Virus record (IMG/VR): IMGVR_UViG_2565956714_000007
Span: 1-15,029 of that record
Reading direction: 5' to 3' (one strand)
Length of the DNA: 15,029 nucleotides
DNA from: a virus
Taxonomy: Duplodnaviria; Heunggongvirae; Uroviricota; Caudoviricetes
How positions within the stretch are numbered: position 1 is the stretch's first letter; each line of letters opens with the position of its first letter. A program made the position numbers and the translations under genes. Below, piece after piece: positions 1 to 14,603 of the stretch. The notes beneath the pieces are model-generated. The model searched no databases, had not been told where the DNA came from, and was given only the letters and a program-made list of their open reading frames with translations.

Positions 1-519
1 CTAAATGGATAATTGCATGTCAAGGCTTTTAACAGCAACATGCTTAACTTTCTCAACACGTTTACGCATTTTGAAAGCATTTTGCATTGGCTGGTACAAA
101 ACAAATAACGACGCTTTCAGGATGTCGTCAATTTCGTTTCTACAGGTTGCCAGTGAAGGTTTTCTCCATCCCTCGCCACCACGTCCACACATCTTGCGTG
201 GCTTTGCAGTCGCGTGATAGTAGGATGCAATTGCTCGCTTAGATGAACCATGAGCGTAGTAGCTGAGGAGGATGCCAAAGGCTTTCTTGTCAATGCACAT
301 GACGGAATCGACGACCTGAGAAATCAACATTCCATCATCATCATTGCACATTGGCCTTGTCATAACTCTTCCCGGCTCTACGCTCTCCATGAACTTCGCT
401 ATTACGCTGCTCATACGCTTTTCCAGACGACCTGAATAAACCCATGCGCCCCACAGTTCAAGCCAGCCATTCAGCCACTCATGATGTTCTTTGGTGAGGT
501 TTAGTTCTCTTATGCCCAC
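1..519 (-). CDS. Q: Late-gene antiterminator Q, phage 21/QuuD-like family (172 aa)
   Basis: Complete ORF with stop at the window edge. Motifs LELWGAW and RPMCNDDD...YYAHG resemble the Q21/QuuD-type antiterminator family. Position is the last gene of the nin-phosphatase-Q series on the early rightward strand. Start overlaps the stop of the upstream phosphatase gene. Confidence 0.75.
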
Positions 520-1181
520 GCGCCTTCTCCCTGTACCTGAATCAATGTGAGATTTCCGCAGAACACTGCCCCAGTATCGATATACATCTGGTTGGCAAAT
601 TTGAGTGGTTTCACTGCTGGCGTATGACCAAAGATAAACGTGTCCGCGCCTTTAATTTCTTTAACGATCCCGTCTTGTGAGTTGCTGATTCGTTCGCGGT
701 TCCAGATTACCTGCTGATGATCAACTGGCTTTCCAAATTCGTATTCGTCACAAGGATAATCGGCGTGGCAGATGACATATTTTTTACCTTTGCTCACCAG
801 TTCGATGATTAACGGAAGTTCTTCTGCTTTATGGGCAAGAGCTTTAGCCAGAATTTCTTTGTCGTAATCGAGATTAAAGAACCAGCCACCGCCATTAAGC
901 AGCCAGTGATTAACGTTTCCACGCTCTGATAAGCCATCAATCATCATTTGCTCATGGTTTCCACGTACAGCTCTGAACCAGGGGAATGTGATTAATTCCA
1001 GGCATTCAACGTTCTCTGCACCACGATCAACCAAATCGCCCACCGAGATAAGCAGGTCTTTTTTGTTGTCGAATCCAATCGTATCCAGTTTGTTCATCAG
1101 GTTCGTGTAGCATCCGTGCTGATCGCCAACTACCCAAATATTTCGGTATTTGCTGCCATCAATTCTTTCGTAGATATTCAT
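510..1181 (-). CDS. Ser/Thr protein phosphatase, lambda PPase (orf221/NinI)-like, calcineurin-type metallophosphoesterase (223 aa)
   Basis: Metallophosphatase motifs in order: VVGDQHG, GDLVDRG, GNHE, and GHT near the C-terminus. RBS GAGG upstream of the ATG. ATGA start/stop overlap with ninG. Sits between ninG and Q as in lambda. Confidence 0.9.
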
Positions 1182-1789
1182 GCAGCCTCACTTCTGCTGT
1201 TTCGCAGTTTTTTAAGTTTCTGTTGATACTCCGCCTTGATGGTCCTGCACTCTTCGACAGTCCAGCGATGGCGGTTATGGTTTGATTCGATTTCGTCTAC
1301 TGCTTCCTGCCCGATGCGGTTAATCAGTTCGACGCGATACGGAACGAGATTTCCGCTTTTGTGCTGGTTGCACACCACGCATTGCTTGTGAATATTGCGT
1401 TCATCAAATCGGAGTTGAGGCGCCGCAGCAGTTGTCCGGTAATGCCCGGCATCCCACTGAGCAGACGTGAGCGTTCCGCACGAGATACATGGTAAGTCGC
1501 GGTCTCTTTCTCTGATGAAGGCGTTTACGGCTTGTTGGGCTTGTTTAATCCAGTAACTGCGGGGCTTTAAGGCGAGTTTTCGAATCTTAAGTTTATCTTT
1601 CTGTTTCTGCTCCTCTCGTCGTCGTTTCTTCTCTGCTGCCTTTTCCGCTTTTTCGCGTTCTTTGCTTCGTCGTTCGAGTGCTATCTTGGTTCCACACTCT
1701 GGAGAGCACCACCACTGATTGGCGAATGCAGGGTGAAACCATTCCCGACATTCATCGTTTTTACATCGTCTTCGCGCTGGTTTAGCCAT
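1178..1789 (-). CDS. ninG: NinG (Rap) recombination protein (203 aa)
   Basis: Cys-rich N-terminus ([10 protein letters not shown]...WWCSPECG), basic Lys/Glu-rich stretch and C-terminal C..C/H motifs typical of lambda NinG; same length class as lambda NinG (204 aa). Position between ninF and the phosphatase. Confidence 0.85.
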
Positions 1790-1952
1790 CGTCTTCTTCC
1801 TCGTGCATCGAGCTATTCGGATCGCTCATCAGTTCTGCGCAGCAGTGCTCACACACGTGAACTTCCAGCACATGCAGCTTCTGACCGCAGTTAGCGCACG
1901 TTAAAGCTCGCTCGACACTTCCTTGTTCGTAACTTCGATTTTGGTCAATCAC
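1782..1952 (-). CDS. ninF: NinF-like small zinc-binding protein (56 aa, GTG start)
   Basis: Hand translation of the minus strand gives [56 protein letters not shown], close to lambda NinF as I recall it. Absent from the ORF track because it is under 60 aa. GTG start overlaps the ninE stop (GTGA) and the stop overlaps the ninG start. Confidence 0.7.
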
Positions 1953-2131
1953 CTTGTTTTCCTCGCACGTTCTCTAAGCCACCGGATATCCCACAGGTGA
2001 GCCGTGTAGTTGAAGGTTTTTACGTCAGATTCTTTTGGGATTGGCTTGCGTTTATTTCTGGAGCGCTTCGTTGGAAGGTATTTGCAGTTTTCGCAGATGA
2101 TGTCGGTGATACTTCGTCGCTGTCGTCTCAT
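1949..2131 (-). CDS. ninE: NinE-like protein (60 aa from an internal Met of the 80-aa track ORF)
   Basis: [60 protein letters not shown]. Starting at this Met gives a 60-aa product with an ATGA overlap onto the ninB stop; the longer N-terminal extension would overlap ninB heavily. Confidence 0.65.
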
Positions 2132-2568
2132 GCCGCCCTGTCTCCCCATCGCGCTTTCCACTCCAGAGCCAGTCGCGCTTCGTCTGACCACTTAACGCCA
2201 CGCTCTGTACCGAATGCCTGTATAAGCTCTAATAGCTCCGCAAATTCGCTTACACGCATCCTGCTGGTTGACTGGCCTATTACCACAAAGCCATTCCCGG
2301 CAAGGTTAGGAACAACGTCCTGCTGCTTTAATGCTGCTGTAAAAACGCACTTCCAGCTTTCTGCATCCAGCCAGCGACCATGCCATTCAACCTGACGAGA
2401 GACGTCACCAAGGCAAGCCCAAAGCTTTCGATTCTGGTCTAAGCTGCGGTTGCGTTCCTGAATGGTTACTACGATTGGTTTGGTTGGGTCTGGAATGATT
2501 TGCTGTACTGCGTGAATAGCGTTCTGCTGATGGATGTGGCTTCTTAGTTCAAACGTTAGTTTCCTCAT
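2128..2568 (-). CDS. ninB: NinB (Orf-family recombination mediator, 146 aa)
   Basis: Length identical to lambda NinB (orf146). RBS GGAG 8 nt upstream of the ATG. Followed directly by ninE/ninF/ninG; ninC and ninD are absent. Confidence 0.85.
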
Positions 2569-2785
2569 GGGATGAACTCCAGTTTGCGATGTTAAATTCC
2601 CATTTAATTACCTTTGCATACCCAATTTTGAACCCATCAATACCTATCCACCGATTGCCACTCCAATAAGCTGTACCACTTTGCTTGAAATGATGTGGAT
2701 GCCTAGATTGAGTGGTCACAGTTACAGGTAAATATGGCTTCGGGTATTCCCCATTCCCTGGATAACCAGATTTAATTTTGCTCAT
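2549..2785 (-). CDS. Hypothetical protein (78 aa), AT-rich accessory gene
   Basis: ORF with RBS GAGAGGG before the ATG and an ATGA overlap with the upstream 108-aa gene. Visibly more AT-rich than the flanking nin genes. No recognisable motifs. Confidence 0.5.
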   Translation of the reverse strand: MSKIKSGYPGNGEYPKPYLPVTVTTQSRHPHHFKQSGTAYWSGNRWIGIDGFKIGYAKVIKWEFNIANWSSSHEETNV

Positions 2786-3108
2786 TGATACCCTCTCTCA
2801 CTTAATCGCGCCCACGCTTCGTTAAACTCTTCTCGGGTTGCGCCGGATTTTCTTTCTTCAAACATCATGCATTCGCTGATGTCTCCCCATGACTTTGGTC
2901 GCTTTTCAGCGAACAGATCATCCCATTCGAATACCCAGCGTCCTGATTTTCGGTAGTGGTAAATGGTCAGCCATGTTGTGCTGTTCGCTGGATACCCATA
3001 GAGAACTTCGACTTTTTGATCACGGTCTTTATGCTTTTTCAGCAGGATAAAGCCAGCAACCAGCGAAGCTCCGGCAAGAATGATGATTGGAATTTGCCAG
3101 TCAGCCAC
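2782..3108 (-). CDS. Hypothetical membrane-anchored protein (108 aa, GTG start)
   Basis: N-terminal hydrophobic helix (IPIIILAGASLVAGFILL) followed by a charged soluble domain. RBS GGGAG/AGGGAAG upstream of the GTG. Occupies the ninA position between ren and ninB. Confidence 0.5.
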   Translation of the reverse strand: MADWQIPIIILAGASLVAGFILLKKHKDRDQKVEVLYGYPANSTTWLTIYHYRKSGRWVFEWDDLFAEKRPKSWGDISECMMFEERKSGATREEFNEAWARLSERGYQ

Positions 3109-3122
3109 ACTTCCCTCTCCCC

Positions 3123-3155
3123 CAAATAAAAAGGCCTGCGATTACCAGCAGGCCT
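3123..3155 (-). terminator. Intrinsic terminator-like hairpin downstream of ren (minus-strand sense)
   Basis: 8-bp perfect stem AGGCCTGC/GCAGGCCT (3132-3139 / 3148-3155) with an 8-nt loop, followed on the minus-strand transcript by TTTTTATTT. Confidence 0.6.
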
Positions 3156-3180
3156 GTTATTAGCTCAGTGATGTAGATGG

Positions 3181-3471
3181 TCATTGCCTTACCTCCATAA
3201 GCGCCCTATTAATAAACGCCGTCATTGGATTTGCACATCCCCACCCCGTACCATCTGGATTTCTTTTAATTGGCTCCTTCTTCACTTTGCGTTTTGCATA
3301 AATAACCGTCTTCCACTTACGCTCAACAACACTCAAATGTCCTTGTTTCACCATATGCCTTGCTGCTTGAGCGATTCTGTTATTTGGTATTCCGGTGATC
3401 AGTGCTAATTCATGTGGGGAGAATTGTTCATGAGTTTTCAGATATTCCAGGATGATTTCTTTTCCAGTCAC
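3181..3471 (-). CDS. ren: Ren-like protein (96 aa)
   Basis: Same length and MTGKE start as lambda Ren, with scattered similarity to my recollection of the lambda sequence. ATGA overlap with the upstream DnaC-like gene. Lies between the replication genes and the nin region. Confidence 0.65.
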   Translation of the reverse strand: MTGKEIILEYLKTHEQFSPHELALITGIPNNRIAQAARHMVKQGHLSVVERKWKTVIYAKRKVKKEPIKRNPDGTGWGCANPMTAFINRALMEVRQ

Positions 3472-4313
3472 GATCTGCTCCTGTAACTATCCCATGTAAA
3501 CGCAAGAGTGCACCCGCCGCCATCATTCATCCTGTCAATAACACGCTCACCAATGAATGCAGACAGTTCATCTTTGCTCTGGTTGCTAATCAGGATTGTT
3601 GGCTTCATGCGCTCGTAGCGGGTGTTGATGATTTCGAACATGATCATCTTTTCCGCCTCGCTTCCAAACTGCACACCAACCTCATCGATAATTAGCAGGT
3701 CAGGTTTAGTGAACTGTCGGATCACTTCATCCTCTGTGCGGGTGGAGTTTTTCGACCATGTTGATTTATATTCTCTGGCAATTTTCAGCGCCGTTGTGAA
3801 AATAGCTGAGCTTTGATGTTCCGTAATTGCGTGCCGGGCGATAGCCAGTGCAAGATGATTCTTTCCAGTACCAGGCTTTCCACACATAACCAGCCCACCG
3901 CCTTTCTGTAACCTCTCAGGCCATTTGCTGGCGTATGCCTGACACACCCTGAGCACTCTCTTTGCATCGTCGTTGACTGGCTCGTAGTTCTGTAGTGTGC
4001 AACCCTTGAATCGTTCAGGAATATCAAGATTATTCAACAGAAACTCGACATTGCGCTTACGTGATTCCTCGTCGATTTTAATCTTCTCTGCCTGTAGCCG
4101 AATAAGCTCATCTCTCATGCATTCCGGGCATTCGCTAGGTCTTGAGGCAAACTTAATTGGCCCAGTCGAGTAACGGTTACGCTGCTCAAACTCACCATGT
4201 TTTTCACAGATGCCAGTGCCAATTTCTACAGATGTATGCTCGATAGCAATTGGCGGAGAACTCAATTCTGCAAGTTTTTTCTCCAGTTGGGAGATCTTTT
4301 CATCCAGCGTCAT
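3468..4313 (-). CDS. DnaC-like helicase loader / IstB-type AAA+ ATPase (replication protein P functional analogue)
   Basis: Walker A GKPGTGKNHLA, Walker B LLIIDEVG and a downstream arginine region typical of DnaC/IstB. Start placed at the second ATG (MTLDEK...), which has GGAG 6 nt upstream and sits 2 nt after the O stop; the track ORF extends to 4331. Confidence 0.85.
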   Translation of the reverse strand: MTLDEKISQLEKKLAELSSPPIAIEHTSVEIGTGICEKHGEFEQRNRYSTGPIKFASRPSECPECMRDELIRLQAEKIKIDEESRKRNVEFLLNNLDIPERFKGCTLQNYEPVNDDAKRVLRVCQAYASKWPERLQKGGGLVMCGKPGTGKNHLALAIARHAITEHQSSAIFTTALKIAREYKSTWSKNSTRTEDEVIRQFTKPDLLIIDEVGVQFGSEAEKMIMFEIINTRYERMKPTILISNQSKDELSAFIGERVIDRMNDGGGCTLAFTWDSYRSRS

Positions 4314-4315
4314 GT

Positions 4316-5158
4316 TCACTCCTGCGCCCATGAAGGCATTTCAGTTTGTCCGTAATCTTTGGTGGCAAAGTTTTCCTGCATAGCTCGATGCTGCGGCCTC
4401 GGTTGAGATTTCCCCTTTGGAGTCTTGGGCTCAAAAATCCCCTGCCAACCACTGGCGATGCTCTGGTTTATAATTTCTTCAGGTGTATATCCCTTCTCCA
4501 GACTTCTGCTTAGAACGTTGATAGCCTGAGTGACACTTTGCTTAGACTTGATCGACTTACCTATCTCCTTGCGATAGGTAACCCACGACAACCATGTTTC
4601 TGCTGATAACCAATCAGGCAACTCTGTTTCTAGCGGGTCGAACTTCTGAGAAACTTTTTTGGGGGATATAGGGGGTTTATTAATATTTTCTTTTGTCTTT
4701 AAAGAATGTCTTTTGTGTGTCTCTAACTTCGAGACATTGAGTGTCTCTAATTTGGGGACATTTTTTGTCTCTAACTTCGAGACAAAGTTGCTAACTTGGA
4801 GACACTTGCTGAATTGCCACGCAGATACCTCACTGTTTACACCGATTTGATTTCCATCCATAAACAGGCAATTCATTGAAATCAGTTCTTTTTTAGCCTT
4901 GTTAACATTCTGCCTTGACAGTCCTGTTAACTGAGCAATTTGCTCATCGGCTATTCGATCTGTTTTCTTATTGAATCCATATGTTTTCCGGACGTAGGCC
5001 AGCATAACTTTCAACTGGCGAGCGGTTAAATCGGCACTTGCGATAGCTTCCAGCAGCTCGTTAGCGAATCTGGTGTAACCATCATCGATATCAGCCACTC
5101 TTCGCTCCTGTTCAACAGGTTCACTCTTCGGCAGGTAAAATACTTCAGCAAGGCTCAT
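4316..5158 (-). CDS. Replication initiator, lambda O-like, with ori iterons inside the coding sequence
   Basis: N-terminal region resembles the phage O N-terminal DNA-binding domain. The central part of the protein (VSNFVSKLETKNVPKLETLNVSKLET) is encoded by the DNA iterons. Start placed at an internal Met (MSLAEV...) with RBS GGAGG; the track ORF extends to 5191 and would overlap the upstream gene by 47 bp. Confidence 0.8.
   Translation of the reverse strand: MSLAEVFYLPKSEPVEQERRVADIDDGYTRFANELLEAIASADLTARQLKVMLAYVRKTYGFNKKTDRIADEQIAQLTGLSRQNVNKAKKELISMNCLFMDGNQIGVNSEVSAWQFSKCLQVSNFVSKLETKNVPKLETLNVSKLETHKRHSLKTKENINKPPISPKKVSQKFDPLETELPDWLSAETWLSWVTYRKEIGKSIKSKQSVTQAINVLSRSLEKGYTPEEIINQSIASGWQGIFEPKTPKGKSQPRPQHRAMQENFATKDYGQTEMPSWAQE
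4718..4804. repeat. Origin of replication: four ~19-bp iterons at ~24-bp spacing, followed by an AT-rich segment (4676-4716)
   Basis: tgtctctaacttcgagaca (4718-4736), tgtctctaatttggggaca (4742-4760), tgtctctaacttcgagaca (4766-4784) and a degenerate copy gttgctaacttggagaca (4787-4804). Each is an inverted repeat TGTCTC...GAGACA. Architecture matches lambda ori inside O. Confidence 0.8.
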
Positions 5159-5789
5159 TTCCAACCTCCGCATCAAAGCATTGGGCTTCAAGAGACTTAA
5201 CCATCACCACACTGCCATCTGTATTAATAACTATCGATGAGTTATATTTGCTTATCAGTTGCTTCGCGTAATCAATTCCGGCGCGAATAAGGAAATTTTT
5301 CACCGCAGGAAGATGACCAACTACACTACCCAGACCTTGCTCTATAAGCTCCTCATTAAGATCAAGCTCATTTTCATGGCGAAAAGAAATGAATGAGTCG
5401 TAAATTGCGTATTCTGCCGTCTCGCCATTTCTTTCAGGGCCAACCAGCGCCCTTATTTCATTTAGAGATTCAGAAAGATCATTATCTTCAAGCTTGAAAA
5501 ACTCTCGATTATCACTAAGCCTCTCTTTTGCAAAGGCTTTATGAATGAGTTTTTCATCTGATGCGGGATTATTTGAATGAAAGGCTGCTATCACCTTAAA
5601 TGGCTTAGGAACGCCAGTAGAGGCTGAAATTTCTTTAGCCCTAACTTCTGGTGAATGCTTAGTCATCCCAATCTTATAAATTCCTGGCATGCACTCATTC
5701 GAAAGCACATAAACAAAGCCATTTGATTTAAAATCATCTGGCACCTTCATGCTCTTCAGAACCTGGAATTTGTCATTTTCGTATGTCAT
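5145..5789 (-). CDS. GIY-YIG-like (T5orf172-type) domain protein, 214 aa; accessory gene inserted between cII and the O-like gene
   Basis: N-terminal GFVYVL...PGIYKIGMT...R..E....P...IH..F...R...REFF pattern matches the T5orf172/GIY-YIG-like nuclease fold; C-terminal ~110 aa unassigned. Strong RBS AGGAG 6 nt before the ATG. Visibly AT-rich relative to cII and O. Confidence 0.7.
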   Translation of the reverse strand: MTYENDKFQVLKSMKVPDDFKSNGFVYVLSNECMPGIYKIGMTKHSPEVRAKEISASTGVPKPFKVIAAFHSNNPASDEKLIHKAFAKERLSDNREFFKLEDNDLSESLNEIRALVGPERNGETAEYAIYDSFISFRHENELDLNEELIEQGLGSVVGHLPAVKNFLIRAGIDYAKQLISKYNSSIVINTDGSVVMVKSLEAQCFDAEVGNEPC

Positions 5790-5823
5790 AATTACTCCTG
5801 TGGATTGATCCAGTCTTTCTACA

Positions 5824-6105
5824 TCAGGCCTCGAAGAATTCGCCGTTCTTCGGGGCTTTTTCTTTTGTCAGGTAATTGGCAAGCCGCTTAGTCAGCTCAG
5901 CCATTTCATCGTCTTCGATTCCGTATTCCAGAACAGCCAGCATCATGCTTACCTGCGAGAAGAAACCATTCTTCCATCGGCTTACCTGATATTCAGGAAC
6001 CCCCATTGCTCGAGCGAATGTCTTCTGCCCCATCAGTGCCAGTTTGTTCAGCAAGGCTGACTCGATGCGAGCCGCTTTCTTGCTTTTAGTTGCAATAGTA
6101 CCCAT
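5824..6105 (-). CDS. cII: CII transcriptional activator (93 aa)
   Basis: Strong similarity to lambda CII (RIESALLNK...SRWK...MLLAVLEYG...DDEMA). RBS AAGGA upstream. Immediately downstream of nutR and cro. Confidence 0.85.
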   Translation of the reverse strand: MGTIATKSKKAARIESALLNKLALMGQKTFARAMGVPEYQVSRWKNGFFSQVSMMLAVLEYGIEDDEMAELTKRLANYLTKEKAPKNGEFFEA

Positions 6106-6112
6106 AGATAAT
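6080..6112 (+). promoter_or_regulatory. Candidate PRE-like CII-activated promoter (TTGC-N6-TTGC box plus -10 GATAAT), antisense to cII/cro and directed toward cI
   Basis: TTGC (6080-6083), ttttag, TTGC (6090-6093) on the plus strand within the first codons of cII, exactly where lambda PRE sits; GATAAT at 6107-6112 is about 17 bp beyond the -35 position. Confidence 0.55.
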
Positions 6113-6181
6113 TTCCTTAATGATTAGATAGAGTTGGCTTCGCAAAGAAACGCAAAACCATAGAGATTTGTTTCTGGTAAT

Positions 6182-6213
6182 GCCCTTTTTCAGGGCGGGG
6201 ATGTGTAAGAGCG
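6182..6213 (-). promoter_or_regulatory. nutR (boxA + boxB) N-utilisation site
   Basis: Minus-strand boxA CGCTCTTAC (6205-6213) followed by boxB hairpin GCCCTGAAAAAGGGC (6182-6196), matching lambda nutR as I recall it; between cro and cII. Confidence 0.8.
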
Positions 6214-6221
6214 TTAATAAC

Positions 6222-6452
6222 TTAAGCGGCCATTAATTCAGGCCAGATGCTTTCCCAATCAACCGGATGAAGGTCTTTGCGAGTCACTTCACCATTGCTG
6301 AACTTCTCAATCAGAACACAAAGTGCTGCGCCCAATTCATGATTACGGCTAAGTGCTTTCCTCAAATAGCCGATAGAAGTTCCGCACTTGGTGGCAAATT
6401 CTCTCTGCTCTTCCAGTGAAAGGGAGTTCAGATACAAGCGGAGTTCTTCCAT
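6222..6452 (-). CDS. cro: Cro-like HTH repressor (76 aa)
   Basis: First gene of the PR operon, divergent from cI. HTH-like segment QREFATKCGTSIGYLRKAL. RBS GGGAAGGAG upstream of the ATG. Confidence 0.7.
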   Translation of the reverse strand: MEELRLYLNSLSLEEQREFATKCGTSIGYLRKALSRNHELGAALCVLIEKFSNGEVTRKDLHPVDWESIWPELMAA

Positions 6453-6484
6453 TTGCTATCTCCTTCCCGTTGTTGAATAAGATG

Positions 6485-6554
6485 AGTTTACCTGTAGGTA
6501 AAAAGCAAATCAATACCCATAGGTTATTTACCGGCAGGTAATCAAAGATAGAAT
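6485..6554. promoter_or_regulatory. OR region: divergent PR (toward cro) and PRM (toward cI) with repressor operators
   Basis: 12-bp operators of form TACCT-NN-AGGTA: TACCTGTAGGTA (6489-6500) and TACCGGCAGGTA (6529-6540), with a degenerate palindrome between (6514-6526). PR on minus strand: -35 TTGATT (6508-6513), 17-bp spacer, -10 TAAACT (6485-6490). PRM on plus strand: -10 TAGAAT (6549-6554) placed so the transcript would start at or near the cI ATG; no SD before cI, suggesting a leaderless mRNA as in lambda. Confidence 0.65.
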
Positions 6555-6560
6555 TAAATC

Positions 6561-7247
6561 ATGGATAAATACGAACAAAGACGACTAAGGCTGATAGAGA
6601 TAAGAGACCGATTCTGTAATGGAAAGGCCTCAGAGTTGGCTCGTCGAATAGAAAGGGAACCATCATACGTTTCCAGAATGCTGTATCCGGAAGGAAAAAG
6701 CGGAAAAAAACGCATTGCTGACGATATGATGGAACTAATTGAAAAATCTTTTAATCTCCCACGCGGATGGATGGACATGCTTGCAGATGGTAAAGCTGGA
6801 GCTACGGACCATCTTGAGTTTGCGGGTAACGTTCGTGCGGGTTTTGTTCCGGTAATTGGTGAAGCCGTTTTGGGAGTTGATGGCTCAGTGGATATGATTG
6901 AATTCAGATCCGGTTGGTTAAGCATCTACAGCGGCGATAAAGATGCTTACGGTCTGAAGGTTAAGGGTGACAGCATGTGGCCAAGGATTCAGTCAGGAGA
7001 ATATGTTGTTATTGAACCAAATACGCCAGTACATCCAGGTGATGAAGTCTTTGTAAGGACCAAAGACGGTCACAACATGATAAAGATCATGAACAAAACA
7101 AGAGACGGTGATTATCAGTTTAGTAGCATAAACAGTGATCACCGCCCAATCACTCTTCCTGTTGAAGAAGTTGATAAAATGCATTTTGTTTCAGCTATTG
7201 TGAAACACACCAGGTACGTAGACCAGGACGATCTGCCAAAAGTTTGA
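6561..7247 (+). CDS. cI: CI repressor (HTH N-terminal domain plus LexA/S24-type autocleavage domain), 228 aa
   Basis: C-terminal S24 peptidase-like region (GDSMWP... with a downstream Lys). Divergent from cro across an operator region. No SD upstream. Confidence 0.9.
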   Translation: MDKYEQRRLRLIEIRDRFCNGKASELARRIEREPSYVSRMLYPEGKSGKKRIADDMMELIEKSFNLPRGWMDMLADGKAGATDHLEFAGNVRAGFVPVIGEAVLGVDGSVDMIEFRSGWLSIYSGDKDAYGLKVKGDSMWPRIQSGEYVVIEPNTPVHPGDEVFVRTKDGHNMIKIMNKTRDGDYQFSSINSDHRPITLPVEEVDKMHFVSAIVKHTRYVDQDDLPKV

Positions 7248-7261
7248 GGATAAAGCAGCAA

Positions 7262-7558
7262 ATGTTTATACCCGGCATAGTAGTCGCTGTTGTAATCATC
7301 TGCTTCATATGGGCAAAGTTATCTCCTGTAAGCTCTAAGCATACAGCTGAACTCATGAGGAAGAAGAATCTTATACATGAGGCAGAATCGATAATTAAAA
7401 AGTTCAAAGGCATGTCATACGACGACATGTCATCAGAGCAGATTGCTATGTATAAATGCGCCATTGAGCGCCTTGACTACTTAAACGGACTCAAACCCAA
7501 ACACACCCCAGTAGAATCAAAATTGCCGCAATGGCCAAGCAATCCAAATAGCTTCTGA
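7262..7558 (+). CDS. Small membrane protein co-transcribed with cI (98 aa from ATG 7262; track ORF begins at TTG 7244)
   Basis: N-terminal TM helix (FIPGIVVAVVIICFIW) then a charged soluble domain. RBS GAGGA ~11 nt before the ATG. Lies between the cI stop and the immunity terminator, the lambda rexAB position. AT-rich. Confidence 0.55.
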   Translation: MFIPGIVVAVVIICFIWAKLSPVSSKHTAELMRKKNLIHEAESIIKKFKGMSYDDMSSEQIAMYKCAIERLDYLNGLKPKHTPVESKLPQWPSNPNSF

Positions 7559-7569
7559 CATCTCCTTTC

Positions 7570-7592
7570 AGCCCGCAAAGCGGGCTTTTTTA
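7570..7592 (+). terminator. Rho-independent terminator ending the cI operon
   Basis: Stem AGCCCGC/GCGGGCT with loop AAA, followed by TTTTTTAT. Confidence 0.8.
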
Positions 7593-7655
7593 TATCAATC
7601 CAAAAAATTAATTACCTGAAAATTCAAGCAGGTAAACTCTCACATCAATTTTATT

Positions 7656-7696
7656 TACCTACAGGTATAGACATGGGTTTTACCTGTAGGTATATT
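7656..7696. promoter_or_regulatory. OL operators and PL promoter
   Basis: Operators TACCTACAGGTA (7656-7667) and TACCTGTAGGTA (7681-7692), centres 25 bp apart, same family as the OR sites. PL candidate: -35 TAGACA (7668-7673), 17-bp spacer, -10 TATATT (7691-7696). Transcript start ATCAGCAGGACGCACTGACC matches the lambda pL leader from memory. Confidence 0.65.
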
Positions 7697-7736
7697 TTAA
7701 GCCATCAGCAGGACGCACTGACCACCATGAAGGTGA

Positions 7737-7767
7737 CGCTCTTAAAAATTAAGCCCTGAAGAAGGGC
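7737..7767 (+). promoter_or_regulatory. nutL (boxA + boxB)
   Basis: boxA CGCTCTTAA (7737-7745) and boxB hairpin GCCCTGAAGAAGGGC (7753-7767), matching lambda nutL as I recall it. Confidence 0.85.
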
Positions 7768-8035
7768 AGCATTCAAAGCAGAAGGCTTTGGGGTGTGGTG
7801 AAGCCAGCTAGTCACTGGCAAGTGCTTACCTACTGTTGAGCGGTGAAGCGCTCCCAATGCTAGCAATAGCGTGGACGAGATGGGGAGCCGCGGGCGATAA
7901 GGCCGCCATAACGCGCACGTTGTCGCATGGAAAAATCGCTGGGGTGCCGGTTATACCCCTCCGAATGAGACTCAACAAGCTGGAGCTAGACTACCAGCCA
8001 CCACACCACCAAAGCTAACTGACAGGAGAATCCAG

Positions 8036-8368
8036 ATGGATGCACAAACACGCCGCCGCGAACGTCGCGCAGAGAAACAGGCTCAATGGAAAGCAGCAAA
8101 TCCCCTGTTGGTTGGGGTAAGCGCAAAACCAGTTAACCGCCCTATTCTCTCGCTGAATCGCAAACCGAAATCACGAGTAGAAAGCGCACTGAATCCGATA
8201 GACCTTACAGTGCTGGCTGAATACCACGAACAGATTGAAAGCAACCTGCAACGTATTGAACGCAAGAATCAGCGCACATGGTACAGCAAGCCACGCAGTG
8301 AAATGGGTGTGACATGCTCAGGCCGCCAGAAGCGACGCGGAAAATCAATTCCAGCTTATTACGATTGA
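8036..8368 (+). CDS. N: Antitermination protein N (110 aa)
   Basis: MDAQTRRRERRAEKQAQWKAANPLLVGV... is essentially the lambda N arginine-rich motif and body; only the C-terminal tail differs. RBS AGGAGAA upstream. Downstream of PL/nutL. Confidence 0.9.
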   Translation: MDAQTRRRERRAEKQAQWKAANPLLVGVSAKPVNRPILSLNRKPKSRVESALNPIDLTVLAEYHEQIESNLQRIERKNQRTWYSKPRSEMGVTCSGRQKRRGKSIPAYYD

Positions 8369-8376
8369 GGTGAGCC

Positions 8377-8541
8377 ATGCTCAAGAAAGTCAAACGCCGA
8401 CTTTACAAAGAAGGTAGATATTCATGCCAATTGCCAAAATGCGACACAACAAAATGGAGTGTCGATGATTGGTGTAACTGGATAGATAGATACGGAACTT
8501 GGTGGGAACGTATTTATTTTCGCGGCAAACCACTTATTTGA
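8377..8541 (+). CDS. Hypothetical small Cys/Trp-rich protein (54 aa)
   Basis: Hand-translated ORF MLKKVKRRLYKEGRYSCQLPKCDTTKWSVDDWCNWIDRYGTWWERIYFRGKPLI with RBS GAGGTG 5 nt upstream. Below the ORF-track length cutoff. Confidence 0.4.
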   Translation: MLKKVKRRLYKEGRYSCQLPKCDTTKWSVDDWCNWIDRYGTWWERIYFRGKPLI

Positions 8542-8549
8542 GGTGAGAT

Positions 8550-8801
8550 ATGGAATTTCATGAAAGTGCGATTTGTGATTTTCGCGCTAACGCAAATTCA
8601 GTAAAACCACAGCCAATTGCAGTTCTTTTTAAAACAATGGGTGCGTGGGCTGTTTTATGCTTCGCCGCTGATGACACTGACGCAAGAATGGCAATAGGCC
8701 AAGAGATGGAGATGGACCCGACAAACGATGAATTCATAATTTATGGCGCTCCATCTAATTACTTACTTGATACCTGCAACATTTACAACAAGGCTGCCTG
8801 A
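8550..8801 (+). CDS. Hypothetical protein (83 aa) in the pL operon
   Basis: ORF with RBS GAGGTGAGAT before the ATG, the same RBS context as the preceding small ORF. No recognisable motifs. Confidence 0.5.
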   Translation: MEFHESAICDFRANANSVKPQPIAVLFKTMGAWAVLCFAADDTDARMAIGQEMEMDPTNDEFIIYGAPSNYLLDTCNIYNKAA

Positions 8802-8860
8802 TGGTGGCCTTTATTTTTTAGCCGTAAATAATTTCATGCTTATTACAATCAAGGTGATAT

Positions 8861-9226
8861 ATGGAAGAACAAGCAAACAAGATTCTCGTAGAACTACTGC
8901 AAAAAGCCAGCAATGGAATAGACGCGGCTGTTTCATTTAGCCAGGCACAGATTCCTGATGTCATCCATCAGCTTTTGATGTGGCACGCCGTATCATCAGC
9001 TGGAATTCAGGCTATCTGTGTATTGGTGATTATAGCGTGTGTTTATCTGATGATTTTTGCATGGAATAAAGGAGATGATGCAGATATTGTTCTTTTATCA
9101 CTACTTGTTACATCAGGAATAGCGATTACTTCTATTGTTGTTTTCTTCAATTATTTCGACTGGCTGAAAATTTGGCTGGCCCCAAAACTTTACCTTATCG
9201 AATATGCAGCATCATTGGTTAAGTAA
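8861..9226 (+). CDS. Two-TM small membrane protein (121 aa) in the pL operon
   Basis: Two hydrophobic helices (AGIQAICVLVIIACVYLMIFAW and IVLLSLLVTSGIAITSIVVFFNYF). RBS AAGGTG before the ATG. Lies in the N-to-cIII interval where lambda carries sieB/ral-type accessory genes. Confidence 0.6.
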   Translation: MEEQANKILVELLQKASNGIDAAVSFSQAQIPDVIHQLLMWHAVSSAGIQAICVLVIIACVYLMIFAWNKGDDADIVLLSLLVTSGIAITSIVVFFNYFDWLKIWLAPKLYLIEYAASLVK

Positions 9227-9375
9227 TTTCAGGCCGCATAATCGTCCTTTATTTTTGGCATAAACAACAGAATAAACACTGCACTGTGTATTCATTCCAA
9301 CGAGTGAATACACGGAGCAATGTCGCTCGTAACTAAACAGGAGCCGACTTGTTCTGATTATTGGAAATCTTCTTT

Positions 9376-9399
9376 GCCCTCCAGTGTGAGGGCCTTTTT
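9376..9399 (+). terminator. Intrinsic terminator-like hairpin upstream of cIII (tL-type)
   Basis: GCCCTC (9376-9381), loop cagtgt, GAGGGC (9388-9393), then CTTTTTA. Expected to be read through under N antitermination. Confidence 0.55.
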
Positions 9400-9465
9400 A
9401 TATGCATACCAATAACGCTTCACTCGAGGCGTTTTCGTTATGCAATCAAATATAAGGAGTTACCC

Positions 9466-9600
9466 ATGATGCACTTTCAGCTCGCGGGTAGCGGCGTCAT
9501 GTCCGCTTTCTACCCGCACGAATCTGAATTATCACGCCGAGTTAAACAATTAATTAGAGCAGCAAAGAAACAACTGGAGGCGTTATGCGCAATGAAATAG
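9466..9600 (+). CDS. cIII: CIII-like protein (44 aa; inhibitor of FtsH-mediated CII degradation)
   Basis: MMHFQLAGSGVMSAFYPHESELSRRVKQLIRAAKKQLEAL resembles the lambda CIII amphipathic core (ESLLERITRKLR...) as I recall it. RBS AAGGAG upstream. Start placed at an internal Met of the 79-aa track ORF. Confidence 0.6.
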   Translation: MMHFQLAGSGVMSAFYPHESELSRRVKQLIRAAKKQLEALCAMK

Positions 9601-9737
9601 CCATTAATCACCAGATGCTTCGTGCGGCACAAAACAAAGCAGTAATAGCCAGATTTATTGGTGATTCAAAAATGTGGCTTGAAGCAAATAAAGCGATGAA
9701 ATCAGCTATCAACCTTCCGTGGTATCGCAGGAAATGA
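9585..9737 (+). CDS. Kil-position small protein (50 aa)
   Basis: Hand-translated ORF MRNEIAINHQMLRAAQNKAVIARFIGDSKMWLEANKAMKSAINLPWYRRK with RBS GGAGG upstream. Overlaps the cIII 3' end in another frame, as kil does in lambda. Assignment is by position and size only. Confidence 0.4.
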   Translation: MRNEIAINHQMLRAAQNKAVIARFIGDSKMWLEANKAMKSAINLPWYRRK

Positions 9738-9904
9738 GTTTTACAGATAACTGGTCAGACGAAGAATTCATTCGTCAGATGAAAGAATTAATCGGTAACG
9801 AAGGAGATATTCATGTCACTTGCAACCACAGTGAAGGAGAGCAAGTTACAGAGACGCATGTACACGCAGCAGGCGTTAATGTATCGCCAGAAGGGAGATC
9901 GTGA
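9734..9904 (+). CDS. Hypothetical acidic small protein (56 aa)
   Basis: ATG overlaps the preceding stop (ATGA). Start taken at the internal Met (MSFTDN...) of the 61-aa track ORF. No recognisable motifs. Confidence 0.4.
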   Translation: MSFTDNWSDEEFIRQMKELIGNEGDIHVTCNHSEGEQVTETHVHAAGVNVSPEGRS

Positions 9905-9991
9905 AGGTGTTCGCGTATTTTTAAATGCGGCAAAGACTGAAGTATTAAATCAGCGTTATTTCCTTGGGCCATGTCCATTCTGAGGTGAATT

Positions 9992-10699
9992 ATGGATTTG
10001 AACAAATTCGATGAGCCATTCAGCCCTGAAGATATCGAATGGCGAATACAGCAAAGCGGTAAAACACGCGATGGCAAGGTGTGGGCTATGGTGCTGGCTT
10101 ATGTCACGAACCGGGCAATCATGAAGCGCCTGGACGATGTTTGCGGCAAAGCAGGATGGCGCAATGAATACCGCGATATTCCCAACAACGGCGGAGTTGA
10201 ATGCGGCATATCAATAAAGATTGATTCCGAATGGGTAACCAAATGGGATGCTGCTGAAAACACGCAGGTAGAAGCCGTCAAAGGCGGTCGTTCCGGTGCA
10301 ATGAAGCGCGCTGCCGTTCAGTGGGGAATCGGTCGGTATCTGTATAACCTTGAGGAAGGTTTTGCACAAACATCTCTCGATAAAAAGCAGGGATGGCACA
10401 GGGCAAAACTCAAGGATGGAACAGGATTTTACTGGCTCCCTCCATCGCTGCCGGGATGGGCAATCCCAGCATCAGATAACAAACCATCACCAGAAAATAC
10501 CAACCAGAAATCTCCATCGGTTGACTGCGAACAAATCCTGAAAGACTTCAGCGATTATGCGTCAACAGAAACTGACAAGAAAAAACTCATCGAGCGTTAT
10601 CAGCGTGACTGGCAATTAATGGCTGGCAACGAGGAGGCGCAGGCTAAATGCGTTCAGGTAATGAACATCAGAGTTAACGAACTAAAACAGGCGGCATAA
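9992..10699 (+). CDS. Rad52/Rad22-family single-strand annealing protein (235 aa)
   Basis: Collinear Rad52-type pattern: ...GW...(20)...G.ECGISI...AAEN...GGRSGAMKRAAVQWGIGRYLYNL. RBS GAGGTGA upstream. Directly followed by ssb. Confidence 0.75.
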   Translation: MDLNKFDEPFSPEDIEWRIQQSGKTRDGKVWAMVLAYVTNRAIMKRLDDVCGKAGWRNEYRDIPNNGGVECGISIKIDSEWVTKWDAAENTQVEAVKGGRSGAMKRAAVQWGIGRYLYNLEEGFAQTSLDKKQGWHRAKLKDGTGFYWLPPSLPGWAIPASDNKPSPENTNQKSPSVDCEQILKDFSDYASTETDKKKLIERYQRDWQLMAGNEEAQAKCVQVMNIRVNELKQAA

Positions 10700-11173
10700 A
10701 TGGCAAGCAGAGGCGTAAATAAGGTGATCATTATTGGTCGCCTTGGGCATGATCCAGAAATCAGATATTCACCATCAGGAACGGCATTTGCAAACCTTAC
10801 CGTTGCTACGTCAGAACAATGGCGTGATAAGAAAACTGGAGAGCAAAAGGAGCAGACGGAGTGGCACCGCGTGGTAATGAGCGGGAAACTGGCAGAAATT
10901 GCCAGCGAATATCTGCGAAAAGGCTCTGAGGTTTATCTTGAAGGCAAATTGCGGACAAGAAAATGGCAGGATCAAAGCGGACAGGATCGGTTCACTACCG
11001 AAGTCATCGTGGGCGTTGGTGGAACCATGCAAATGCTTGGTGGCAAGCAAGGAGGCAATGAACAGTCTTCACCTCAGCGAAATAATGGTCAGCAACAAAG
11101 ACAGCAACCTCAGCAGCAGGGAAATCACAGCGAACCACCTATAAACTTCGACGATTCGGATATTCCGTTCTAG
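10700..11173 (+). CDS. ssb: Single-stranded DNA-binding protein (157 aa)
   Basis: OB-fold N-terminal region ([17 protein letters not shown]...WHRVV), Gly/Gln-rich linker and acidic C-terminal tip DDSDIPF. Confidence 0.9.
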
Positions 11174-11182
11174 GAGCTGAAT

Positions 11183-11662
11183 ATGAAAATCTGCTCAAGA
11201 TGCCATCAACCGAAGGAAGAAAGGGACTTTCAAATCAGAAGAGCATCCAGAGATGGATTAACTGCCGCTTGCCGGGCTTGCCTGGCTGAATATGACAAAG
11301 AGCGCGCGGGATTGCCACATCGAGTATCAGCAAGGAGAGAATATCAATCATCGGAACGCGGCAGAGAACGGTGTAACGCAGCCAAAAAGCGGTTCATTCA
11401 GAGCAACCCATGGAAAAGAAAAGCCCACATCATCGTGGGTAATTTTTTGCGCGACGGTAAGCTAATCCGACCACCACAATGTGAGTGCTGCGGATCAGAA
11501 TGTAAACCACAGGCGCACCACTGCGACTACAGCAAACCAACCGATGTGATGTGGCTCTGCAAGTCATGTCATGTCGAGTGGCACAAACATAACAAACCTA
11601 TCTACCCAGACGAGGAGCCAGTAACTCTCCCCTTCCCTCGTCACGCTATTCACGCAATTTAA
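11183..11662 (+). CDS. HNH endonuclease-like zinc-binding protein (159 aa)
   Basis: N-terminal CxxC...CxxC zinc ribbon. C-terminal HNH-type motif CECCGSECKPQAHHCDYSKP...WLCKSCHVEWHKH. RBS AGGAG upstream. Confidence 0.7.
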   Translation: MKICSRCHQPKEERDFQIRRASRDGLTAACRACLAEYDKERAGLPHRVSARREYQSSERGRERCNAAKKRFIQSNPWKRKAHIIVGNFLRDGKLIRPPQCECCGSECKPQAHHCDYSKPTDVMWLCKSCHVEWHKHNKPIYPDEEPVTLPFPRHAIHAI

Positions 11663-11670
11663 GGACTTAC

Positions 11671-12219
11671 ATGAATCACTTGATGGTTGACCTTGAAACA
11701 ATGGGCAACGGGCCATACGCGCCAGTTATTTCTATTGGGGCGGTATTCTTTGACCCGAATACCGGAGAAACAGGAGAAGAGTTCTCGGTAAATATCTCGC
11801 TTGAATCATCAATGCGATATCGAGCGCGTCCTGACGCTTCAACGATTTTATGGTGGCTGGAACAGAGTGAAGAAGCCAGGAAATCGCTAACCAGCAACAC
11901 TCAGGAGCTTTCAACGGCTCTTTCATGGTTATCTGAATTCATCATAAAGAACGCTAACCACAAATTCGTTCAGGTTTGGGGGAATGGAGCATCATTTGAC
12001 TGCGTTATTCTCCGCAACAGTTATTCGCTGACAGGGCAGCCAGTTCCGTGGCAGTGGTGGAATGACCGCGACGTAAGAACAATCGTCGAACTTGGGAAGG
12101 CAATAGGATTCGACCCTAAGCGAGATATGCCATTCAAAGGAACTCGCCACAACGCTCTTGATGATGCCATTCACCAAGCCAAATACGTTTCAGCGATCTG
12201 GAAAAAGTTAGCTAAATAA
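11671..12219 (+). CDS. DnaQ-like DEDDh 3'-5' exonuclease (182 aa)
   Basis: Exo I motif MVDLETMG, Exo II motif GNGASFDCVIL and Exo III motif HNALDDAIHQAKY, in order. RBS AAGGA upstream. Confidence 0.8.
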   Translation: MNHLMVDLETMGNGPYAPVISIGAVFFDPNTGETGEEFSVNISLESSMRYRARPDASTILWWLEQSEEARKSLTSNTQELSTALSWLSEFIIKNANHKFVQVWGNGASFDCVILRNSYSLTGQPVPWQWWNDRDVRTIVELGKAIGFDPKRDMPFKGTRHNALDDAIHQAKYVSAIWKKLAK

Positions 12220-12235
12220 TCAACAGGAGAAAACC

Positions 12236-12532
12236 ATGCCAGCGCCTCTGTATGGTGCGGATGACCCGCGCCGCTGTTCCGGCAATTCCGTATCGGAGGT
12301 GCTGGATAAATTCAGAAAAAACTACGACCTGATAATGTCTCTACCGCAGGAAACGAAAGAGGAAAAGGAATTTCGCCACTGTATATGGCTTGCAGAGAAA
12401 GAAGAACGCGAGCGAATTTACCAGACATCAATCCGACCATTCCGCAAAGCCACATATACCCACTTCCCTGAATATATCGACCCGCGCCTGCGTAATTACC
12501 GCTCACGCTATGGCGCTATCAGTAATGACTGA
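12236..12532 (+). CDS. Hypothetical protein (98 aa)
   Basis: ORF with RBS AGGAGA before the ATG. No recognisable motifs. Confidence 0.5.
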
Positions 12533-12542
12533 GGAATTTACC

Positions 12543-12710
12543 ATGAGAGGACTTGCATACAATCCCGGCATTCTTCCGGCAGAAATGATTATTCGCCAAC
12601 GCGTAAAGCCAATGCCATCGAGAGAGGAATTGCTTAAGAGAAAGAGTTTCGGTTCTGTTAATGACAACAAATATCTGAATGCGATGTTGCGCAAAGGAGG
12701 CAACCGGTGA
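12543..12710 (+). CDS. Hypothetical protein (55 aa; internal start of the 106-aa track ORF)
   Basis: ATG preceded by RBS GAGGAA. The upstream part of the track ORF overlaps the 98-aa gene in another frame and lacks an RBS. Confidence 0.4.
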
Positions 12711-12840
12711 CTGGACATGCAGCGATCCTCGACATGTGCTGTGGCAGTCGCATGTTCTGGTTAGATAAGAATGACGAACGGGCGAGATAAGCGATCGGTT
12801 AAGTGCTATAGTAATGCGCTTTTGTATTTATGGAGTGAAT

Positions 12841-13539
12841 ATGAAAAATATCCTACTGGCATCATTGTTAGTGGCATCGCCGGGTGCATTTGCAGCCAGC
12901 TTTGACTGCCAAAAGGCTTCGACAGCAATCGAACATAAAATCTGCGATAACGAACGTCTGTCAAAATTAGACGAACAGCTTAGCTCTGCCTATTCTAGTG
13001 CCCTCAAAGAAAACCCAGAGAACGCAGACACCATAAAAATGGTTCAACGTCAGTGGGTAAATATGCGTGGAAAACTCACTGATAATAAGGCTCTGGAGCT
13101 GGCTTATCTTATCCAAATTAATGGCCTCAAAGGTTTGGGGAGTTCAGTCAGCGTAACAGCGGCCAATGAGATACCCACGTCGACGCAGAAACATTCTGAA
13201 GAGCAGGAAGAAACAAGTAAGGCAGAAGTTAAGTCGGTCAAGAACGGCAATAAGCTAACCTTAGAGTCATTCCGAGCTAAATATGTAGAAGTAGATGGTG
13301 AGTATTACAGCACGACATCCATTCCTAGAGGCAGTTCGTTCTTGTTCACTTGCGCCAGTCGTATTGCTGATGACCAAGTGAATGTTTGGAAGAAACATGC
13401 AGCCAAAGAGGGCAAAATCGACCTATTCTTTGAGGTTGAGAATCACTTACACACTGCTATGTTGAACGCCAATTTCCAGAAGTTGAATTCAGACCCTGCC
13501 AAAAGAGGTATTTGTAATCTGATTAACGCAGTGCCGTAA
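12841..13539 (+). CDS. Secreted DUF1311 (LprI N-terminal-like) domain protein, 232 aa with signal peptide
   Basis: Signal peptide MKNILLASLLVASPGAFA. DUF1311-like motif FDCQKASTAIEHKICDNERLSKLDEQLSSAY...QRQWV. RBS GGAGTG before the ATG. Start taken at M10 of the track ORF. Followed by a hairpin. Confidence 0.7.
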   Translation: MKNILLASLLVASPGAFAASFDCQKASTAIEHKICDNERLSKLDEQLSSAYSSALKENPENADTIKMVQRQWVNMRGKLTDNKALELAYLIQINGLKGLGSSVSVTAANEIPTSTQKHSEEQEETSKAEVKSVKNGNKLTLESFRAKYVEVDGEYYSTTSIPRGSSFLFTCASRIADDQVNVWKKHAAKEGKIDLFFEVENHLHTAMLNANFQKLNSDPAKRGICNLINAVP

Positions 13540-13549
13540 GTAAATTTAG

Positions 13550-13580
13550 GGCCACAGTTGTGGCCTTAAATATTTTTTCA
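13550..13580 (+). terminator. Terminator-like hairpin after the secreted-protein gene
   Basis: GGCCAC (13550-13555), loop AGTT, GTGGCC (13560-13565); the T-run TATTTTTT begins ~9 nt later, so this is a weaker terminator. Confidence 0.4.
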
Positions 13581-14546: not shown

Positions 14547-14565
14547 TGCGGATTTCTTTTATCTG

Positions 14566-14590: not shown

Positions 14591-14603
14591 ATGGAGATGA
14601 TAA

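Follow-up and report, generated by a model that had tools for sequence, protein, structure and literature searches.

The nuclease gene and its surroundings

The DNA analysed here, called the window throughout, is a stretch of 15,029 nucleotides from a virus of the Caudoviricetes (IMG/VR record IMGVR_UViG_2565956714_000007, positions 1 to 15,029). Between its cII gene and its O-like replication initiator gene lies an open reading frame (ORF) for a protein of the T5orf172/GIY-YIG nuclease type, referred to below as the nuclease gene; coordinates of this and of all other features are collected in Table 1. The genes for a Cro-like protein, CII, the O-like initiator and a helicase loader all lie on the strand of the nuclease gene, and the gene for the CI repressor lies on the opposite one. 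Because of this set of genes and their strands, the window is read as containing, in reversed orientation, the early part of the rightward (PR) operon of an E. coli prophage of the lambdoid type.

An earlier note, written from the sequence alone, had described a 214-amino-acid (aa) ORF co-oriented with the PR operon at a junction where lambda passes directly from cII to O. Both statements are correct, and in lambda cII occupies 38360-38653 and O starts at 38686. The note had also called the gene AT-rich. Its GC content is indeed lower than that of the window (40.3% as compared with 45.4%), but the difference is only modest. In RefSeq the gene is named 'GIY-YIG nuclease family protein', while the PHROGs that match its product (8430 and 16524) carry the label 'unknown function', and an NCBIfam search with the protein gave no meaningful match. 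The identity and anatomy of the gene, as described in the following sections, can be regarded as practically certain. In addition, the comparisons with related phages show it to be an optional gene of lambdoid replication modules, in which it is the first cistron, directly 3′ of a conserved cII/oop linker.

The encoded protein

The T5orf172-type GIY-YIG motif that the earlier note had seen near the N terminus is borne out both by profile searches and by structure prediction, and support for the T5orf172/GIY-YIG fold is solid. The Pfam profiles MUG113 (PF13455; 59.7 bits, cut-off 22.3, aa 38-111) and T5orf172 (PF10544; 57.4 bits, cut-off 20, aa 24-112, covering positions 1-100 of 101 in the profile) both score well above their cut-offs, and the GIY-YIG fold is present in an AlphaFold2 (AF2) model with a predicted local distance difference test score (pLDDT) of 86.7. 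In an alignment of 38 sequences with identities of 33-99%, the residues at motif positions are invariant, namely G24, Y27, Y38, K39, G41, T43, R50, E53, H83, R95, E96, F97 and F98. Among these, Y27, Y38, R50, H83 and E96 are the putative catalytic residues, as judged by their positions in the motif.

A search among 5.8 billion proteins returned about 50 relatives, which fall into two tiers. The first contains 28 full-length homologs of about 214 aa and 52-99% identity, from E. coli, Klebsiella aerogenes, Pectobacterium, Cronobacter and Pantoea; members of the second are longer (about 232 aa) and share 33-47% identity. Over the long term, the ratio of nonsynonymous to synonymous substitution rates (dN/dS) is about 0.09 in both domains of the protein, a rough figure since dS is saturated. 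The homologs, this ratio in both halves and the confidence of the AF2 model together place the gene far beyond a chance ORF.

The C-terminal domain is acidic, with an isoelectric point of 4.45 (family median 4.6; whole protein 5.1). When its profile was compared with 1.84 billion representative proteins, 13 clusters were recovered, all of them having the same architecture or being fragments of it. Therefore, the domain is a private one, confined to this family and not shuffled into other proteins. Sequence searches of the PDB with the full protein and with the C-terminal domain profile gave nothing below E 0.3.

An apparent nuclease-O fusion, P0032 (locus L118, ENA ERZ1714338 contig_1816), was considered as a decayed copy of the gene and rejected: several genes of this contig, including that for CI, are split, and an error of assembly or a frameshift artefact most likely accounts for the fusion.

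The cII-O junction

The extent of the element can be defined by comparison with cultured phages. In the P22-like coliphage Bas106, the homolog Bas106_0049 is 99.5% identical and the gene order is cII, nuclease gene, O and a DnaC-like gene, whereas in phage N7 cII is followed directly by O and there is no nuclease gene. When the window was compared with N7 by blastn, positions 3401-5113 were 99.4% identical and positions 5784-5946 were 84% identical. What lies between these two segments is a cassette that contains the nuclease gene from its third codon onwards together with a substitute for the first 15 codons of O. Its boundaries are sharp, since the identity of about 99% in O gives way to unalignable sequence exactly at O codon 16, and alignment is likewise lost exactly at the third codon of the nuclease gene.

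In gene orientation, the window, Bas106, N7, Salmonella phage S107 and lambda have a common junction, '...ACTGGATCAATCCACAGGAGT(A/C)ATT ATG AC'. The ATG that they share opens O in N7 and lambda (MTNTAKILNFGRGNF...) and opens the nuclease gene in the window; the empty lambda-type junction reads ACTGGATCAATCCACAGGAGTCATTATGACAAATACAGC...GCCGAACAGGAGC. As linker and ATG are common to phages where O follows directly, the AGGAG motif ahead of the nuclease gene is not a ribosome-binding site (RBS) of its own. The earlier note had credited the gene with its 'own strong RBS'; the motif is instead the conserved RBS of the cII-O linker, used by O in phages that have no nuclease gene. About 30 nt on the 5′ side of the start codon are in fact kept across the whole family regardless of the initiator that follows, mostly as (A)ACTGGATCAATTCACAGGAGTAATT, with a second type found after YdaT.

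In the carriers, O restarts further downstream, from ATG 5158 (MSLAEVFYLPKSEPVEQE...), and homology with N7 resumes at GAACAGGAGC. The start of O is this ATG and not the TTG at 5191 given in the mechanical ORF list; it produces a 14-nt overlap with the stop of the nuclease gene, and the annotation of Bas106 begins O at the equivalent ATG. The 5′ end of the carrier O is a diverged homolog of the lambda-type 5′ end.

The same slot can be occupied by another gene. In locus L003 (Salmonella phage S107), a DUF2740 gene for 48 aa (orf63, 2856-3002) lies between cII and the nuclease homolog, and in an E. coli O111 match (H123) a DUF2740 gene comes directly after cII. Thus, small accessory genes of more than one kind are found at the cII-initiator junction.

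Distribution and empty sites

Among 5,426 complete E. coli genomes, 19 contain the 670-bp segment, in each case with an identity of at least 99% and beside a 'replication protein', while the same O allele (at least 80% coverage) occurs in 46 genomes. Empty-site alleles were found in phage N7 and in E. coli SC422, EC2001, 10035776-3 and F344, with an O that is about 99% identical. These five alleles have an identical junction despite carrying three different cII alleles. The nuclease gene is dispensable, because many phages with the same O allele do without it.

The earlier note had described the gene as inserted, and had looked to relatives with an intact cII-O junction to define the insertion. 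Such clean empty sites exist, and conservation of the gene at the junction is not universal. Presence or absence at a fixed site is therefore established, but a recent gain is not, given that the linkage of gene and O is old and that the empty alleles may be losses. In effect, the empty alleles can be explained equally well by recombination with a lambda-type junction. The age of the linkage follows from locus L045, whose protein is 70% identical: there, an identity of about 79% to the window extends across the end of cII, the gene, O and the loader, and it is this even divergence across gene and module that makes the gene-O linkage old.

Within O haplotypes, carriers and non-carriers interleave. 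Of the single-nucleotide polymorphisms, those at +10, +137 and +281, counted from the junction, show partial linkage to the cassette and those farther away none, with a decay over a few hundred bp. Pairwise differences among 14 carriers average 0.60% for the gene, 0.42% for the initial 320 nt of the O body and 1.47% for the 3′ part of O. For the 150 nt upstream and for the loader gene the averages are 19.6% and 12.4%, respectively. On account of the two lowest values, the gene and the N-terminal/ori half of O can be said to act as one inherited block.

Lambdoid phages swap modules at sharp boundaries, and whether this occurs through short conserved linkers or through random breaks followed by selection is an old question. 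The nuclease gene sits exactly on the classical boundary between immunity and replication modules, and the site is found both filled and empty on a replication module that is about 99% identical.

Position before replication initiators across the family

To place the window in a wider context, 100 loci were fetched from GTDB genomes and IMG/VR, together with the contigs of individual homologs. In this set ORFs were called heuristically, the IMG/VR loci include near-duplicates, and the viral loci are the best 80 of at least 538 hits. Downstream sequence was available for 93 loci, and in 89 of them the distance from the nuclease stop to the start of the next co-oriented ORF is between -74 and +12 nt; the four exceptions are short proteins with nothing but the N-terminal domain. 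In every class checked, the ORF that follows encodes a replication initiator, and the initiators belong to several unrelated families. These include Phage_rep_O (26), HTH_36/DnaD-like (10), DUF1376 and others, as well as a large group lacking a Pfam match that is labelled 'replication initiation protein' in PHROGs (phrog_17247/16167/12556). On the upstream side, 54 of 91 loci have cII next to the nuclease gene and 14 have YdaT. Nuclease clusters at 70% identity or more have essentially one initiator type each. They show no co-variation with the loader-binding tail of the initiator or with the type of loader, and track only the half of the initiator that is physically adjacent. This family-wide positional rule and the private C-terminal domain appear to be undescribed, and a literature search found no paper on the nuclease gene, on a nuclease in the cII-O slot or on PDC-S57.

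In most second-tier homologs, the C terminus has the form G(I/A)YGPxxP..(D/E)F or ..D(S/T)DIPF, as noted at loci L009-L012, L015-L018 and L051-L107. These endings resemble the C-terminal tip of single-stranded-DNA-binding protein (SSB) and, loosely, a clamp-binding motif. Presence of the tail varies with the type of initiator downstream: 31 of 42 distinct proteins have it when a phrog_17247-type initiator follows and 7 of 9 when an HTH_36/DnaD-like one does; it is found in none of the 18 distinct proteins encoded before Phage_rep_O, among which is that of the window. The possibility that the tail mimics the loader-binding tail of initiators, raised by an hhalign match of 'GIYGPxxP' to 'GIFEPKTP' in O, was rejected, as the motif is missing from initiators at loci whose nuclease bears the tail.

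Some observations concern the initiators themselves. At loci L003-L111 their C-terminal tails are of about four types (..TDWAYEVMR, which is lambda-O-like, ..KDYGQTEMPSWAQE, ..HWNSREAWENEFL and ..PMNYIPEGFTG). These are independent of the N-terminal DNA-binding type, that is, domains have been shuffled within initiators. Initiators with the lambda-O-like tail are accompanied by lambda-P-like loaders, and those with the KDYGQTE type of tail by DnaC-like ones. The O gene of the window contains four ori iterons with a 24-nt spacing (4713-4804), and their number varies among loci: L034 is missing 75 nt of the array, and one more unit of 24 nt is present in L041 and L043. Finally, PHROG 8130 (434 positions) is matched by the initiators at positions 11-104 and by the nuclease at 181-257. 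Because both match the same profile, fusions of an initiator N-terminal domain with T5orf172, similar to Odn of phage ICP1 (see below), exist in phages.

Relation to known systems

The protein belongs to the T5orf172 branch of the GIY-YIG superfamily, and it is not of the SNIPE, PDC-S57 or Odn type. In distribution and position the gene resembles free-standing homing endonuclease genes, but the DNA-binding domain expected of these was not recognised in its product. For instance, the seg and mob genes of T4 and enzymes of the I-TevI type have an N-terminal GIY-YIG domain followed by a second domain, lie between genes beside an essential one and follow a logic of marker exclusion, in all of which the nuclease gene is like them. 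The structure 1ln0 is the catalytic domain of I-TevI. A comparison of the nuclease family with the N-terminal sequence of I-TevI by hhalign, using an approximate query, was not significant.

A close parallel is offered by the free-standing T5orf172 genes of ICP1, T5-like and other phages, putative homing endonuclease genes which share with the nuclease gene the PF10544 domain, a place beside an essential replication gene, variable presence and an association with boundaries of genetic exchange (PMC10448857). In those genes, the nuclease is paired with recognisable DNA-binding domains, and frameshifts or decay are frequent (PMC10448857). By contrast, the gene in the window encodes an N-terminal nuclease with an acidic, private C-terminal domain, is always intact, occurs in lambdoid phages that are temperate and, as first cistron, always precedes the initiator.

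A tie between a T5orf172 nuclease and a replication initiator or origin is also seen in the origin-directed nuclease Odn (Gp88) of ICP1, an experimentally characterised protein in which an initiator-like DNA-binding domain is fused to T5orf172 (PMC8263062), and PHROG 8130 has the same fused architecture. The difference is that the DNA-binding domain of Odn is fused in cis, while the initiator of the window is encoded by a separate downstream gene. An Odn-like origin of the C-terminal domain from an initiator DNA-binding domain was considered and rejected, as hhalign gave a probability of 1.4% for its profile against the O of the window.

SNIPE/PD-Lambda-1 has a homologous nuclease domain (profile positions 354-450), which is C-terminal there and N-terminal in the window, and it also has a transmembrane anchor and DUF4041, both absent from the 214-aa protein. 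The PADLOC candidate PDC-S57 is similar in length and domain order, but only positions 3-93 of the 212 in its profile align. The gene of the window belongs to a phage early operon and not to a defence locus of a host or prophage. With the structure-specific nucleases Slx1/HIGLE the likeness is at the level of the fold only (9-13% identity), and the protein has neither a RING/zinc finger nor a partner of the Slx4 type.

Possible functions

The earlier note had offered two readings, a selfish homing-like gene and a nuclease for phage-phage competition, and these are still the leading candidates. The interpretation that we favour, tentatively and at somewhat less than an even chance, is that of a free-standing homing-like or marker-exclusion endonuclease similar to the T4 seg/mob genes, which would be both selfish and a weapon against competing phages. 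In such a mechanism, the nuclease would be made early from PR, together with O, upon infection or induction. It would then cut the DNA of co-resident lambdoid genomes that lack the gene, at or near the junction of linker and initiator. The carrier genome would be spared because the first 15 codons of its O have been replaced by a diverged version, and recombinational repair from the carrier would transfer both the gene and the O/ori segment beside it to the rival. The acidic C-terminal domain would serve for dimerisation or regulation rather than for DNA recognition, and a dimeric nuclease domain may be the source of target recognition.

Homing fits with the nuclease family, with the polymorphism of presence and absence at a fixed site, with the sharp boundaries and with the interleaving of carriers and non-carriers among O haplotypes, a sign of repeated exchange. 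Two features of the sequence could also have a part in it: the diverged start of O could possibly give self-immunity, and the conserved linker of about 30 nt could possibly be a target shared across the family. Moreover, the putative homing endonuclease genes of ICP1 and T5-like phages belong mainly to the T5orf172 class, whose members cluster beside genes that are essential or code for replisome proteins, as well as where genetic exchange has its boundaries (PMC10448857). The cultured pair formed by Bas106, a carrier, and N7, with an empty site, permits a direct test of whether T5orf172 nucleases drive biased inheritance and mosaicism in temperate phages.

Nevertheless, several points weigh against homing. 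Classical GIY-YIG homing enzymes have a basic DNA-binding domain, unlike the acidic C-terminal domain found here, which matched nothing in Pfam, the PDB and known folds and bears no resemblance to a DNA-binding fold. A diversity lower in the gene than in its flanks, which would be the sign of a recent sweep, was not seen among the 14 carriers, as the gene equals the adjacent part of O in this respect; the gene looks vertically co-inherited with O and not independently mobile. All 14 near-identical copies are intact, with no pseudogenes, so that the cycle of gain and decay typical of homing genes is not apparent. Exchange of modules at the linker also takes place without the nuclease gene, as the three cII alleles joined to identical empty junctions attest. 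At 60% identity, one nuclease cluster precedes three unrelated families of initiator, and a target inside the initiator gene can therefore not be general. Finally, homing by T5orf172 genes has been claimed on genomic grounds only, and experimentally shown for none (PMC10448857).

Some of these points suit the main rival explanation, possible although rather unlikely, namely a replisome-linked accessory nuclease that serves the phage as a part of its replication module, whose C-terminal domain (with the tip motif in relatives) docks on replication or repair proteins and which nicks or cuts at forks or origins. The purposes proposed for such an enzyme are a switch of replication mode, the clearing of obstacles or the destruction of competing replicons. 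It would account for the position as first cistron before initiators of any type, kept in 89 of 93 loci, for the old linkage to O, for strong purifying selection on both domains and for a C-terminal domain that is acidic and does not look DNA-binding. The SSB-tip-like C-termini of many relatives point in the same direction, and the fusions of initiator and T5orf172 domains in PHROG 8130 and in ICP1 Odn (PMC8263062) are a Rosetta-stone hint that the two work jointly. However, the tail is absent from all 18 distinct proteins upstream of Phage_rep_O, that of the window included, the nuclease clusters follow neither the loader-binding tail nor the loader type but only the adjacent half of the initiator, as plain linkage predicts, the C-terminal domain has no similarity to O, and a phage can dispense with the gene, since its O allele also occurs in many phages without it. 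We also know of no step in lambdoid replication that needs such a nuclease.

A broader form of this idea, which we consider doubtful, is that of an Enterobacterales-wide 'replication-module nuclease' that is not a homing element and is delivered to the replisome/SSB interactome by the private acidic domain and, in most relatives, by the SSB-tip/clamp-like peptide. If true, a nuclease that cuts replicating DNA of rival replicons or processes the phage's own replication intermediates would add to lambdoid replication modules an accessory function not described before. The fixed position before unrelated initiators and the SSB-tip-like tails of relatives provide, beside the homing-like endonuclease, a second lead towards a replisome-linked function.

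It is improbable that the gene is a passive accessory gene, moved only by ordinary homologous recombination at the linker and within O and encoding a fold that may be non-catalytic or may have an unrelated use, such as that of a regulator or adaptor. Such a gene would agree with the exchange of modules at the linker in phages without it and with the acidity of the protein, and a domesticated, non-cutting T5orf172 relative is reported from a phage satellite. Yet the GIY-YIG motif's residues are all invariant over 33-99% identity and the nuclease half is under strong purifying selection, and on these grounds a non-catalytic role is unlikely.

Very improbable, lastly, is a prophage defence effector that protects the lysogen from superinfection like SNIPE/PD-Lambda-1 or PADLOC PDC-S57: although the PADLOC profiles of PDC-S57 (E 6e-29) and PD-Lambda-1 (E 1e-11) match, PDC-S57 proteins are of similar size (about 212 aa) with an N-terminal T5orf172 domain and the nuclease domain of SNIPE is an experimentally proven anti-phage nuclease (PMC13190303), the matches are limited to the nuclease domain (aa 21-112), the protein has no transmembrane segment or DUF4041, its context is always the replication module and never that of a defence island or moron, and, with no promoter-like site found by a scan between cII and the gene start, a gene inside the CI-repressed PR operon should be silent in the lysogen.

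The oop-like antisense unit

The linker also overlaps an oop-like antisense RNA unit, which is conserved at window positions 5787-5868 when viewed on the plus strand. In lambda, the 5′ end of the antisense OOP RNA is at 38,675, the -10 element of its promoter pO lies 8-13 nt to the right, and a LexA site is present (PMC5869508). For full activity, lambda pO needs 94 bp to the right (PMC5869508). By homology, the corresponding elements of the linker would have these functions in the window. As read from the sequence, the -35 region of pO and part of what lies upstream have been replaced by the cassette, with TTGAGT of lambda becoming TGGAAT at the same spacing, and a promoter scan reported none at the position of pO. 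Because the cassette replaces upstream pO sequence needed for full activity, carriers may make less OOP. Through this change in the oop promoter, they may also differ in their lysis-lysogeny setting. A search of Rfam gave no family matching the oop-like region.

Other features of the window

Table 1. Positions of the features discussed, numbered from the first letter of the window; aa, amino acids.
Feature	Position	Strand	Remarks
T5orf172/GIY-YIG nuclease gene	5145-5789	minus	214 aa; ATG start, stop TGA 5145-5147; ORF list and Pfam
Nuclease domain, aa 22-116	5442-5726	minus	GFVY27...IY38KIGMT...R50AKE...H83...R95E96FF
Family-private acidic C-terminal domain, aa 117-214	5148-5441	minus	Long helix 160-182, hairpin 184-198, helix 200-210
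Cassette absent from empty-site relatives	5114-5783	minus	670 bp here versus 42 bp of lambda-type O 5′ sequence in N7
Substitute O translation start	5156-5169	minus	GGAGG 5165-5169 and ATG 5156-5158, inside 3′ end of nuclease gene
Conserved linker from cII to replication module	5790-5823	minus	RBS AGGAG 5795-5799; identical or near-identical in window, Bas106, N7, S107 and lambda
cII	5824-6105	minus	Upstream neighbour of nuclease gene; Pfam Phage_CII, 103 bits
O-like replication initiator, 280 aa	4316-5158	minus	Pfam Phage_rep_O, 124 bits; PHROG 678
DnaC/IstB-like helicase loader	3468-4331	minus	Same strand as nuclease gene
Cro-like gene	6222-6452	minus	Same strand as nuclease gene
S24-peptidase CI repressor	6561-7247	plus	Opposite strand to nuclease gene
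pO -10 element, CATAAT	5787-5792	plus	Overlaps low end of linker and, by three bases, ATG of nuclease gene
LexA-box-like sequence, CTG-N10-CAG	5798-5813		Inside linker
5′ end of oop-like RNA	~5800	plus	Complement lies in linker; by alignment with lambda
oop-like terminator, 14-bp stem and T-run	5826-5858	plus	Inside 3′ end of cII; aligns with lambda tO region; extent 5826-5868 as stem plus T-run
Rad52/Rad22-family annealase	9992-10699	plus	
Phage SSB	10700-11173	plus	Ends in ..FDDSDIPF
Cys-rich ORF, 159 aa	11183-11662	plus	Without Pfam match
Rv2179c-like 3′-5′ exonuclease	11671-12219	plus	

A sigma-70-like site, TCGAGA-16-GATAAT (9/12), lies inside the nuclease gene on the minus strand (5481-5508) and points towards O. 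It is probably due to chance, the count of such sites being no higher than in shuffled sequence. On the plus strand, the window carries in addition a PL-side recombination cluster, which spans positions 9992-12219 and runs from the annealase to the exonuclease of Table 1.

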